Below are positions 24,183 through 33,660 of a DNA stretch of 64,000 bases, in pieces. The stretch is from Lytechinus pictus (lineage: Eukaryota): the NCBI RefSeq assembly GCF_037042905.1, contig NC_087255.1, positions 35,030,001 to 35,094,000 on the forward strand, written 5' to 3'. A program made the translations under genes and the position numbers. How positions within the stretch are numbered: position 1 is the stretch's first letter; the number at the start of each line of letters is the position of its first letter. A model generated the notes under the pieces. It was not told the origin of the DNA and did not search any database. It worked only from the letters and a program-made list of their open reading frames with translations.

Positions 24183-24205
24183 CTGAAAAGAGAAAAGGAA
24201 ATGGG
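24183..24205 (-). promoter_or_regulatory. Splice acceptor immediately upstream of the TatD ORF ATG
   Basis: TAACCCATTTCCTTTTCTCTTTTCAG|ATG: branch-like TAAC (overlapping the pol stop), polypyrimidine tract and CAG abutting the start codon. Confidence 0.7.
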
Positions 24206-27200
24206 TTACCCACAGCTACAAAAAGGACAAAAATACTTGTCAATAGACATTCCTTCCGCATGGGTAACACCAACACATGCACCATGGAACCACTCATCGC
24301 ACCCATCACATTGAATCATGAACGATCCATCGTCGGGGGTTCTACAGTAGCAATACCTTTCCTTCCTCCAGTCAGGGCCTGAGGGCTTGGCCTCGTCAAG
24401 GCACCTTTTGAGCTGGTCATGGTTTACAGTCAGGGCCTTGTTCCGATAGATCACCCGGTATACATAAGGGGTATATCGCTTCACGATAAAAAAAAAAATA
24501 ATAATAGCCGGACCCTTCCAGGGAGATTGCAGCTTCTTGCATTTTCCCTTGGGGGTCGCCTTGGCGAGAAGGTATACTCGGTCCCCTTCTTTAAATTGCC
24601 GCAAGTATACCTTTATGTCGTAATCCCGCTTCAACCGTCGCTGTGTATTCCGGAGGGTGGCTCTCGCAGCATCGTGCGCCTCTCGGATGCTCTGGGATAA
24701 CTGAGATGAATATTCATCCAGAGGTCGGTCAGAGACGAATGGGGGAAGTGGAAAAATCAGCTCCGCTGGTTGATTAGTTTCACGCCCCAGCATCAATTGA
24801 TTGGGCGTGAATCCCGTACTACGGTTGATCGTGGAACGAATCGCTCCAGCGATCTGGGCGAGGTTGTGGTCCCAATGAGTCTGGGACTTCCCAATGTAGC
24901 ACCTTACCGCATCCATTAAGGTTCGGTTGAAACGTTCAACCTGGCCGTTTGCGGAAGGTCGGTACGGGGTAGTCCTAGCCTTATGTATATGGAGCAGTTT
25001 ACAGATGTTCGTGAATAACCTGCTCTCAAAATTTCTGCCCTGATCAGTAAAAATCTGGAATGGATAGCCAAAGCGGCAAAAGAACTCGCTAATGGCTGCC
25101 TGAGCGGTTACTTCCGCTGTCTGAGAGGGCAGTGGGACACACTCAACCCACTTGGTGAACTGGTCCACCATCATCAAGATGTACACGTTACCTCGTGAGG
25201 TTTTGGGTAAAGGACCCATGAAATCGAGGTGTACACGTTCCATCGGGGCCCCCGCATGATAAGTTATCATGGGGTGTTTCCCATACCTCACGGCTTTCTT
25301 ATTTTTATTACAGACGGCACATCTCCGAATATACTCTTGGATGTCGCCCGACATACCATACCAGTAGTATTTGGACCGAAGTTTACCTTTAGTACGGTTC
25401 ACACCAGCATGAGCTGCTGAAGGAGGATCATGATTTAGCTTGATCACTTCAGTACGCAAAGACTTGGGCACTACAAGTAGGAGATTGTCATCGCCTTTAC
25501 GCCAAATGACACCATCCTTATGCACAAACAGCTCTCGGTTGACCCATAGGAACTTTCCAGCGGGGTCCCACAGAAGAACAGTTCCCTCGTCTGGTTCCTC
25601 TTTATCGAGCAGCCATTTGCGCAAGGGGGTCAGTTGACCATCAGCCTCTTGTTCTTTCCGAAGAAAGTCCATTGAGGTGAGGTCGATACCAGACCCGGCA
25701 TCATGGGTTACCCCGTTGACCCTAAAAGAGAATGGACCGTCGATTGGACCAATATCCAGGTGAGTGATAAAGAGGTCCTCCGATTCTCCGGGGTCAAGGG
25801 TAACTTCTGAAACTTTACTCCTTTGTGCCAATTGGATCACATTGTCCACAGCATCAGTGAAGTGTGCCCAGTTTGTGTGGGCCTTCAGGCAGTATGCACA
25901 ACCACCACAGGGCAAACTCTTGGGGTCAATACCCAGACGGTAGTTCTCACATGTAAAGTCGCCGTCGGGTATACGAGACAATGCATCTGCATTCTGATGT
26001 TTCTTGCCAGGGCGGTGTTCAACTGCCATGTCATATTGGCCCAGTTCTTCGAGCCACCGGGCAAGCTGCCCTTGAGGCTCCCTAAAGTTCATTAACCATG
26101 TCAGACTCCCATGGTCCGTGCGAACTGTAAAAGGCTTTCCGAGGAGGTAATGCCTATACTGGCGGGTAAACCGTACCACTGCCAACAGCTCACGCCTGGT
26201 TACACAATAGCGTCGTTGTTCAGGGGTCAGGGAAAAACTGCCATATGCAATAGTTCGCTCTTGCCCCTGTTGGACTTGGGTTAAAACAGCCCCAATAGCT
26301 GTGCCAGACGCATCGGTATCCAGAATGAACGGATCCGTGGAGTTGGGTAGTGCGAGGATAGGGGCGGTGGTCATGAGCCTCTTGACTTCCTCAAAAGCCA
26401 CTTGATGCAGGTCCTCCCAGCGGAAGTCATTGTTCCCAGTGAGGCCATAGAGTGGCCCTACAACCTGGGCATAGTCTTTAAGGAAGACACGGTGATAATT
26501 TACAAGTCCGAGGAGCCGTTCCACCTCCTTTGTGGACTTAGGGGTGGGCCAGTCCACTACGGCTTGAACATGCTCTTCCTTAAGGTGGAGACCATTCCCA
26601 TCAACCTCTCTACCAAGAAACTCTACCCGACGTTGGAAGAAGGAACATTTCTTTGGCTTCAACTTAAGCTTAAAGTCCCTAAATCGTTCCAACACCTGTC
26701 TGATGTTAGTGACGTGATCAGAGAAAGAGGTGCCGAGCACTACAACATCATCCAAGAAGGCTAAAGCGATATCCCAGTTCAACCCCCTGAGGATGAGATT
26801 CATTGCTCGAGAGAACGTGGCTGGGGCATTACATAAGCCGAAGCCCATGCGAACAAACTCGTATAAACCATACTTGGTGATAAATGCTGTCTTTTCACGG
26901 TCTTCCGGCCTGAGATTGACTTGCCATTAGGCAGAATTTGCATCTAGTTTGGAGAACCATGAATTCTCTGCTAAGGTATCCAAACACTCTTCGATGCAAG
27001 GAAGCGGGTAGACATCTTTCTTCGTAACGTTGTTAAGTTTACGATAGTCTATACACCAACGGACGCTACCGTCCCGTTTTCGGATTAAGACAGGGGCGGA
27101 CGCCCATTCCGACATCGAAGGTTGGATCACCCCGGCGGACAGCATTTTGTTAAGACATGCTCGCTCCTCTTGAACAAAGTTCATGGGTGTACGCCTCATC

Positions 27201-28573
27201 TTTTGCTTGATGGGCGTAGCTTCGCCTGTGTCGATTGAATGGGTAATGGCTGTGAAATTACCCAAGTCGAATTCATCCCGGGCAAAGACACCCTCAAATT
27301 CTAGCAACAAGCCCTTTAATATTCCTTGCTGTTCAGGAATTAAGTGTTCCGAAGATCGTTTCCAAAGATCTTCCAAATGGGTGGGGATTTTGGCATCCCC
27401 AGTCAAGTCAACCTGGCTGACACTTGGAATAGGATTGTCAAAGTCGGGGGGTTCTCTAGAACCTACGCGAGAAGCCTGTCCAAGGTGTTGACCTTTATCC
27501 CAATGGATGGAAACATCAGTAGCATTCACAGCATATAACTGTATAGAGCTACTCCCAGAATGCAATGTGCGGGGAACCAATCCTATAAGGGCAACATCCG
27601 GCTTTACCATAAACTGGTCAAACGTGCAAGAAGAATCAAGTTCGCATTGTACTCGTTTGACTGACATTGGGGGGATGGTCACAGAATTTGAAACGAAAAC
27701 CTGAGAGGTATCAGTGTCTTCACCACAAGTCATTGTAATGCACTCGCCCTGAAAGATTAACAAGGAATCCGGTATATTGATGAATGCACTGTGCTTCTTG
27801 AGGAGATCAGCTCCAAGCAGCATATCATCGTCTATCGGGGCAACATAGACGCATTCACTAAACGTCTGGCCACCTAGGGTCATATCAACCGGTCCTACAA
27901 TTATTCCAGTCATACTCATATTTCTTCCAGCTGTATTTAGGACGACTGACCTAATAACTGGAGAAGCGGGGCGTAGTGCATGGTAGATTTTATCAGACAT
28001 TATAGTCACCTCTGCAGCAGTATCGATTACGGCACGCATCAATTGGTTACCGACCAATATATTTATGCTATAAGTAGATGATGACTTTATCCGGCAGACT
28101 ACAACGTCCGAGGCCTGTTCGAGGTCCTTCGGGATCCAGCTATCTAATTGCGGATTCTCTTCAGGGGGTGGCCAGGGGGGTACCAACCAGGGGCTGGGCT
28201 CCAATGGAGGCCTAGGCGTATCAATCACCTGGCTGATGGGGGGTGGAGAGGAGAGTTCCTTGACACTCGGAACTTTCCCTGACCCTTCAGTGATACCAAT
28301 ACCGTCCTGACCGCCATCTCTCAGTTCGGATTCTTTAACAATCAAATCAGGAGAGGGAACACCCAGTTCCTTACTTCCTCTGGGAAGAGAGTCTTCGCTA
28401 TCCAACGACCGGTTAGCCTCAAGTACTACCAAGGATATATCTGCTTCTTGCTCCTCTTGAGAGAGCGAATCCTCTAAAAGTACTTTGGCATTTTCGGAAT
28501 CCAAATTAGAATTGGGGTCCGCTTTTAGTGGGATCGGGGTCGGACCTCCTCCTCCGATCCCGAATCGTTTCCC
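24206..28573 (-). CDS. pol: Gypsy Pol (protease, RT, RNase H, integrase, C-terminal PHD finger), one in-frame TAA at 26927-26929
   Basis: Protease VIDTAAEV. RT WASAPVLI...CIDYRKLN...LDANSA*WQV...FLDD. RNase H TDAS...RELLA...TDH. Integrase HLDFMG / TDQGRNFES / NGQVERFN. ORFs 26927-28504 and 24206-26848 share a frame. Confidence 0.92.
28516..28573 (-). promoter_or_regulatory. -1 ribosomal frameshift signal (G GGA AAC + H-type pseudoknot)
   Basis: Slippery heptamer at 28573-28567 in the gag frame, then a 5-nt spacer. Stem 1 is GGGATCGG/CCGATCCC and stem 2 is GGTCCG/CGGACC. The -1 frame is open into pol. Confidence 0.8.
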
Positions 28574-33274: not shown

Positions 33275-33284
33275 CGCAGCGCCA
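33275..33284 (-). promoter_or_regulatory. Primer binding site, probably tRNA-Ser
   Basis: TGGCGCTGCG, 3 nt after the 5' LTR, is complementary to a tRNA 3' end ...CGCAGCG-CCA. A G discriminator and GCTGCG acceptor stem fit tRNA-Ser (inference). Confidence 0.7.
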
Positions 33285-33287
33285 ATA

Positions 33288-33660
33288 TATAGTAAACTGA
33301 CTATATGGATGTTAACCTAAATAAAGTAAGCTGGATTACCGAGAACCATATACTCACCTTAATCCTGGGTCAGTCCGTCTTAATCGTACAAAGGATGAAG
33401 ACTTCGATGACTTGTAAGTATATAGAGCTTGTCGTAGAACTTGTAAGTAGACTTGTCGTAAAACCTGATGACTCGTGTGAACTTGAGGGACGTATACGTA
33501 GTAGACTGTAGTACTGTACTGATCGAGAGCTGAACGTGAGAATGCGTCTGATATCTTGGGATCCTGATTCTGCGTACGTATGGAGGTTTTCTGGGGGGCA
33601 TGGTCGCACGCACGGTCGCGCGTATTGTAGCACTTCGCGCGGGCGACCAAGTTCCCCATA
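33288..33660 (-). repeat. Gypsy 5' LTR (TA...TA ends)
   Basis: Identical by eye to 21397-21769. Followed by a PBS. Confidence 0.95.

Follow-up and report, generated by a model that had tools for sequence, protein, structure and literature searches.

How does a retrotransposon express a gene that lies behind gag and pol? The question is raised by a 64,000-nt stretch of the Lytechinus pictus genome (contig NC_087255.1, positions 35,030,001 to 35,094,000; hereafter the window), whose minus strand carries a complete long terminal repeat (LTR) element from 33660 to 21397. All element coordinates refer to the minus strand of the window. It is a young Ty3/Gypsy LTR retrotransposon with gag, a pol that ends in a PHD finger and a separate 430-codon open reading frame (ORF), ORF3, for a TatD nuclease. 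An earlier note on this DNA had proposed that ORF3 is expressed in the manner of env, from a spliced subgenomic mRNA. Here, we find that the LTR contains a functional splice donor and that an unusually strong acceptor abuts the ORF3 start codon. We consider it likely that ORF3 is expressed by splicing into this acceptor (24183/24182) from one donor or another, and, with rather less assurance, we think it probable that the donor is the one in the LTR (33358/33357).

A functional splice donor within the LTR

The donor reported in the earlier note is present in the 5′ LTR, the first intron G lying at 33357, and an identical copy occurs at 21466 in the 3′ LTR. Splice sites were scored with a crude weight matrix. 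By this measure the LTR donor is joint second among the 733 GT sites of the element, and its score was equalled in 11 of 2,000 shuffles of the LTR. Two ATGs precede it within the LTR, both out of frame and both upstream of a TATA-like box at 33424; transcription starting 25–30 nt downstream of this box would give a short, ATG-free first exon.

The region 21775-33800 was compared with four of the 12 listed sequencing runs. X1 and X6 yielded 68 and 42 contigs, respectively, and the contig results given here are among the pieces listed for these two runs; X10 and X11, which are raw RNA reads, yielded 15 and 14 reads (about 6% of each run). One X1 contig departs from the LTR exactly at 33357, and the 30 loose letters listed for it all match the window at 19833-19804, the single exact match. 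In the flanking host DNA this sequence sits directly behind a T-rich pyrimidine tract and CAG (...TTTTTCTACTACTCAG/GCTATT). The intron so defined has GT-AG ends and would measure 1,632 nt if spliced from the 3′ LTR, the acceptor lying 1.6 kb past it. Because the join from the LTR to 19834 is a GT-AG splice, the donor works and X1 holds spliced RNA; X1 is counted as RNA solely on this join, and the nature of X6 is uncertain. Thus, the LTR donor is functional.

With a working donor in its LTR, any copy of the element can be spliced to the DNA next to it. This happened at the present locus, where the spliced transcript (21466 to 19834 if it comes from the 3′ LTR) makes a chimeric exon in host DNA; no host gene was found at that site. 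A local stem is predicted to pair the donor (z -0.39, not significant). This hairpin was rejected as a regulator, as 70 of 200 shuffles were equally stable and the pairing is alike in the 5′ and 3′ LTR contexts.

An acceptor abutting the ORF3 start codon

The strong acceptor claimed for the TatD start likewise held. The site, ...CCCATTTCCTTTTCTCTTTTCAG/ATG, has its last intron base at 24183 and the ATG at 24182; pyrimidines make up 19 of the 20 bases upstream, and a branch-point-like TAAC ends 22 nt ahead of the exon. Of the 788 AG sites in the element it scores highest, and no other AG site on either strand of the window (6,762 in all) reaches its score. Shuffled elements reached this score in 15 of 300 cases, and in 0 of 300 with an ATG directly after. 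Joined to the LTR donor, it would define an intron of 9,175 nt (33357 to 24183), taking out the primer binding site (PBS), gag and pol. The base at -3 of the ORF3 ATG is C in unspliced RNA and would be A after splicing (AAG/ATGG).

In the expression model that we favour, a single RNA would be transcribed from the 5′ LTR and would remain mostly unspliced, serving as the genome and as the gag and gag-pol message, with pol made through a -1 frameshift. A fraction would be spliced from the LTR donor to the ORF3 acceptor, so that a short ATG-free exon 1 would run directly into the TatD ORF, whose start codon would then lie in a strong context. Such RNA would lack the PBS and be unable to prime reverse transcription. 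Translation of this RNA would yield an accessory protein, a class II TatD nuclease that is soluble and probably nuclear.

ORF3 is a separate and conserved protein in related elements

A profile search listed 150 representatives of the ORF3 family at <50% identity. The catalytic motifs are retained in 106–122 of 128 such proteins (again <50% identity), and of 54 long family proteins chosen by hand, 50 consist of TatD alone and one, a Dreissena gene model, also contains reverse transcriptase (RT). The integrase-PHD end of pol has 187 relatives, 120 of them listed, among which sea urchins, a crinoid, a starfish, bivalves and gastropods are named. Pol stops within 15 residues of the PHD finger in 105 of the 113 relatives with a recognisable PHD end (6 of 119 are without one). 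Since pol ends soon after the PHD finger and TatD stands alone, the two are separate proteins across the clade, and ORF3 therefore needs its own route to translation. The order of a PHD finger followed by ORF3-family sequence recurs in gene models P0006, Acanthaster P0374, Mytilus P0357 and Nucella P0407.

These relatives bear on the alternative that the splice signals arose by chance and ORF3 is an unexpressed passenger. Very few raw reads were recovered from X10 and X11, and where they lie over ORF3 the first mate maps to the minus strand, as expected of antisense RNA in most types of stranded library. Against this, the donor is in use, the acceptor statistics are above chance, the catalytic motifs have been kept across the family, and the PHD-to-ORF3 order is found in starfish, mussel and snail gene models. 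We regard a passenger as highly improbable.

The earlier note had also asked for conservation of the acceptor in related elements. Gene calls that cross the spacer between pol and ORF3 often encode, just ahead of Met, residues compatible with a pyrimidine tract and then a codon (Gln or Arg) that could hold the AG. The present element would read FLFSFQ/M; P0158 reads FSFSFCLALQ/M, P0006 reads PHD...FRFCFYLCR/M and Mytilus P0357 reads PHD...NLFQ/M followed by ORF3-family sequence. P0393 reads PHD...FFFFDVLQ/M, its ORF3 identity being unconfirmed. In the cluster P0285/P0307-P0311 the frame shifts upstream of FFCFS/AVD and is constant downstream, and its two N-termini can be read from a single DNA in different frames, which 0 of 500 shuffles allowed; the same test on the pair P0304/P0312 failed. 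Moreover, the S. purpuratus-type gene model P0139 enters ORF3 at the site where P0009 reads FFLCFCAYFCIPPYR/IDAP. Acceptor-like N-termini were found in 6 of 97 family proteins vs 28 of 1,647 internal blocks (p 0.01), and in 1 of 104 microbial TatD controls. Family-wide tests of this kind are low in power because the spacer is invisible in most gene calls, which begin no earlier than the true ATG.

Searches for DNA of related elements gave two distant TatD loci in viral contigs, with no match to pol, and 80 metagenome loci at 23–33% identity, which were set aside as ordinary microbial TatD. Two further relatives differ in layout. Dreissena polymorpha P0153, a 2,227-aa model, has one TatD ORF ahead of gag and pol and another, different TatD fragment behind them, which may reflect tandem elements or another gene order. 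P0155-P0157 and P0159 (Lytechinus variegatus and L. pictus) belong to the ORF3 family; their N-terminus is rich in Gln, two isoforms are annotated, and they are kept in both species. They are possibly a domesticated fusion of host sequence and ORF3; we take the Gln-rich N-terminus to recall host CCAR1, and an atlas search of the P0159 N-terminus gave no usable match.

Weighing the LTR-to-ORF3 junction

Several observations weigh against the pairing of the LTR donor with the ORF3 acceptor. No 33358-to-24182 joint was found among the pieces listed for any of the four runs, at very thin coverage; this absence is weak counter-evidence, because X10 and X11 hold few reads and contigs drop rare forms. 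Contigs cover sequence of the would-be intron, for example an X6 contig at 32226-33317 with a depth of 15.8. The sole splice observed uses another acceptor and may originate from the 3′ LTR or a solo LTR. Weaker acceptors in the leader (32798, 32636 and 32630) lie much nearer to the LTR donor than the ORF3 acceptor does, and a donor in gag at 28887, missed in the earlier note, outscores the LTR donor (8.23 vs 7.88). Furthermore, conservation was judged from the protein sequences of relatives rather than from the DNA of related elements. Minus the three first-seen cases, acceptor-like N-termini number 4 of 94 (p 0.09); acceptor-like pol tails number 1 of 25 vs 0 of 333 (p 0.07), with no enrichment of T; and Gln precedes a second Met in 1 of 41 proteins, no excess over a background of 6.5%. 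A similar pyrimidine tract before ORF3 is seen in a few relatives, the family-wide tests being weak or null.

The gag and leader sites raise the alternative that the ORF3 acceptor is used mainly by another donor. Splicing from 28887 would produce a Gag(1-599)-TatD fusion, lacking the zinc knuckle, that could bring the nuclease into particles; a leader donor (30833 or 32559) would act after extra 5′ exons. In favour, the gag donor is the top of the 733 GT sites and is in frame with ORF3, and the leader acceptors lie nearer to the LTR donor. However, no joint of the gag donor to the ORF3 acceptor appears among the pieces listed for the four runs; X1 contig 5 stops at 28889, two bases from the gag donor, with no loose end listed there. 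A weak search of ORF3 relatives of 754–2,150 aa gave four proteins and no Gag-TatD fusion. An ATG exactly at the exon start, in relatives too, suits a non-coding first exon better than a fusion. We judge another main donor unlikely.

ORF3 might also be expressed unspliced, either because the 3′ part of pol contains a promoter or because ribosomes reinitiate beyond the pol stop, which lies 24 nt upstream. In that case the pyrimidine tract would be a promoter element or a spacer, leaving the LTR donor to serve a gag message or 3′ end control as in foamy viruses, whose LTR donor suppresses polyadenylation (PMC3694450). The unseen junction and the short distance from pol stop to ORF3 start favour such expression, and in plant elements antisense extra ORFs are expressed from internal promoters (PMC7264820). 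It is nevertheless at odds with the full branch point-tract-CAG anatomy, which is above chance. Reinitiation would yield little protein because pol would be reached only by frameshift, and for a foamy-like role the LTR has no AATAAA to suppress. On these grounds unspliced expression seems to us decidedly unlikely.

A further route is suggested by one X6 contig (depth 2.07, with 34 letters on its shorter side), which joins 33275, in the PBS, to 24142 via 18 other letters. The first of these extend the PBS, perhaps echoing a tRNA 3′ end. The join has no GT-AG ends, breaks 40 nt from the acceptor and enters ORF3 in frame near codon 14; the contig may be a TatD-only mini-element or deleted copy, a faulty strand-transfer product or an artefact. 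It would accord with most TatD being made from copies with an internal deletion that brings the LTR and PBS right up to ORF3. Such a source is very improbable in our estimation: this is one low-depth contig from one of four runs and may be a template-switch artefact, and deleted copies leave the retained acceptor of full-length copies unexplained. As a speculation, the PBS-ORF3 product could come from faulty reverse transcription of the PBS-less spliced RNA.

With regard to the 3′ end, the earlier note rightly placed a minus-strand AATAAA, beginning at 22043, upstream of the 3′ LTR; neither LTR contains AATAAA or ATTAAA on that strand. Its hint that the message may end there is not favoured. 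Contigs of both contig runs, X1 and X6, pass from the 3′ untranslated region (UTR) into the LTR (depth 14.1 and 39.1), though contigs cannot show ends, and 22043 is probably not the main 3′ end. The depth of X6 climbs toward the 3′ end and drops from about 15 to 0 across the A-rich tract 32209-32182, near 32200, a pattern that may fit oligo-dT or internal priming, or early polyadenylation.

The ORF3 protein

The TatD domain occupies aa 158–427 of ORF3 and is its only Pfam match (PF01026, E 4e-29). The metal-site motifs are all present (DSHFH at 159, SELG at 257, LHLR at 292, IHNF at 326 and ETD at 376), and by these motifs ORF3 is classed as a class II (HxH) TatD nuclease. Similarity to solved TatD structures is distant only (best E 7e-13). 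The N-terminus is of low complexity, with a basic helix-like motif at aa 53–67 and two GRGRG sequences. Neither a signal peptide nor a membrane helix was detected in ORF3, the top 19-residue hydropathy being 1.36 and N-terminal windows scoring at most -0.69. Lytechinus pictus proteins annotated as TATDN2-like or TatD-like are 99.8%, 96% and 90% identical to ORF3, and its basic KRTW motif is common to 12 other database proteins. RG repeats were dismissed as a family-wide nuage-targeting signal, being found in only 5 of 98 proteins. A loose C2H2-like motif lies ahead of TatD in 76 of 98 family proteins, a count made without a shuffle control; it is absent from the ORF3 of the window.

Among cellular enzymes, the human class II protein TATDN3 acts both as a 3′ exonuclease and as an endonuclease at abasic sites (PMC10085689), and R-loops are a substrate of TATDN2, which removes their RNA (PMC10711561). 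Reasoning purely from TatD biochemistry, we tentatively regard the processing of RNA:DNA or single-stranded DNA intermediates formed by the element itself as the most likely role, though at less than even odds. The main alternative role would be action against host small-RNA or DNA-sensing defence.

Comparison with known systems

Spliced ORF3 messages and nuclease ORF3s both have precedents. The ORF3s of LTR elements are typically expressed via spliced messages (PMC5408684), and a spliced subgenomic RNA is predicted for the env ORF3 of barley Bagy2 (PMC7264820). Like the env ORF3 of retroviruses, errantiviruses and Bagy2, the TatD gene follows pol as a third ORF in sense orientation, ahead of the 3′ LTR; an acceptor marks its 5′ edge, and a spliced subgenomic RNA is predicted. 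In contrast to env, it encodes a soluble TatD nuclease without signal peptide or membrane helix, and the splice here is predicted. Simple retrovirus and errantivirus donors sit downstream of the PBS, whereas the donor here is in the LTR, upstream of it. The env-style proposal of the earlier note thus fits in expression logic only, with a donor that is used, an acceptor far above chance and a separate ORF; the junction was not seen among the pieces listed for the four thinly covering runs, there are no env features, and ORF3 is no env gene.

The nearest precedent for the cargo is the DEDDy ORF3 of Juno and Vesta in bdelloid rotifers. These are likewise Gypsy-type elements with a non-envelope nuclease ORF3 of unknown role, for which the authors assume spliced messages (PMC5408684); they differ in the nuclease, a DEDDy 3′-5′ exonuclease rather than TatD, and in their hosts, and pol here is PHD-ended. 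TatD has no matches in the main text of that paper. Foamy viruses also have a donor in both LTRs, predicted to be base-paired, but their LTR poly(A) signal lies downstream of the donor and is suppressed by U1 binding (PMC3694450), whereas no AATAAA or ATTAAA is found in this LTR. Moreover, foamy viruses are retroviruses, and in the present element the predicted pairing is similar in the two LTRs and no stronger than in shuffles. ORF3 shares HxH and the other metal-site motifs with cellular class II TatD proteins (TATDN2, TATDN3, YcfH and YjjV; PMC10085689, PMC10711561), and with TATDN2 a long low-complexity N-terminus, near-identical proteins being publicly annotated 'TATDN2'. It differs from them in being intronless, element-borne and present in many copies, and its nuclease activity is predicted.

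Judged by titles and abstract starts, the papers searched held nothing relevant on TatD in retrotransposons, and a TatD cargo with an LTR-internal donor was not among their subjects, most subscription papers, Repbase reports and supplements falling outside this scope. A squid literature match for TatD in retrotransposons proved to be a gene label, and 'Selgy' was a false lead.

The element family would explain why sea urchin and mollusc annotations contain many multi-copy 'TATDN2-like' genes. Should the junction prove real, TatD would be an accessory gene under regulation rather than a stowaway, and a second nuclease fold would be added to the few enzymatic ORF3s of LTR retrotransposons. A still wider scenario, speculative and on the whole rather unlikely, is that of a large echinoderm and mollusc Gypsy clade, apparently undescribed, with a complex-retrovirus-like plan. 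Here, a conserved post-PHD acceptor would be fed both by the LTR donor, giving free TatD from PBS-less RNA, and by the in-frame gag donor, giving particle-loaded Gag-TatD; the nuclease would edit reverse-transcription intermediates or disarm host defence, and miscopied spliced RNA would seed TatD-only mini-elements and host-gene fusions.

Element architecture and other features of the window

The insertion is regarded as young because its LTRs are identical and a 4-bp target-site duplication, AAGT, is present at both element ends. The LTR termini are TAT...ATA rather than TG...CA. The features of the element are collected in Table 1. A slippery-site-like G GGA AAC near 28573, with a hairpin after it, lies at the gag/pol overlap, and an in-frame stop within RT at 26929-26927 breaks the pol of this copy. 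The start of gag (30684-30570) matches Pfam HHH_3, a DNA-binding helix-hairpin-helix, barely at the cut-off; a helix-hairpin-helix at the N-terminus of Gag is, to our knowledge, unusual. No Rfam family matched within 19000-35000.

Table 1. Features of the LTR element and its flank, in order along the minus strand.
Feature	Position	Strand	Remarks
5′ LTR	33288..33660	-	373 bp, 100% identity with 3′ LTR; AAGT immediately before
TATA-like TATATA	33419..33424	-	sole one within the LTR
Donor AAG/GTGAGT in 5′ LTR	33352..33360	-	position 304 of 373, 70 nt before LTR end
PBS TGGCGCTGCG	33275..33284	-	putative; 10-mer beginning TGG, 3 nt past the LTR
Leader	30685..33287	-	2.6 kb, AT-rich, GC 0.35, 19 ATGs
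Weaker acceptor candidates in leader	32798, 32636, 32630	-	
Donor candidates in leader	30833, 32559	-	
A-rich tract in leader	32209-32182	-	four AATAAA
gag	28525..30684	-	719 aa: N-terminal helix-hairpin-helix, PNMA-like capsid region, CCHC knuckle
Alternative donor CAG/GTGAGT in gag	28882..28890	-	phase 0 after codon 599; joined to 24182, in frame with ORF3
pol	24206..28579	-	-1 frame; protease, RT, RNase H, integrase, C-terminal PHD finger (Pfam)
Spacer, pol stop to ORF3 ATG	24183..24208	-	branch-point-like TAAC, pyrimidine tract, CAG acceptor
ORF3	22890..24182	-	430 aa, TatD
AATAAA in 3′ UTR	22038..22043	-	274 nt upstream of 3′ LTR
Purine-rich tract, polypurine tract candidate	21770..21781	-	G-rich, adjoins 3′ LTR
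3′ LTR	21397..21769	-	same donor at 21466; then AAGT
Cryptic acceptor in flanking host DNA	19804..19860	-	exon starts 19834

Elsewhere in the window, a second complete young LTR element, of Bel/Pao type, occupies 9279-17339 on the minus strand. Its LTRs, identical and about 970 bp long, have the termini TGT...ACA, and CATAA flanks the element at either end; two long ORFs at 16348-13127 and 13027-10625 carry Pao domains. An identical direct repeat of 475 bp occurs at 6252-6726 and 7716-8190, 1,464 bp apart. Lastly, a dispersed AT-rich repeat with long inverted ends, resembling a miniature inverted-repeat transposable element, is present in many copies (2500-5250, 18900-19400, 36100-38750 and 44800-50000).

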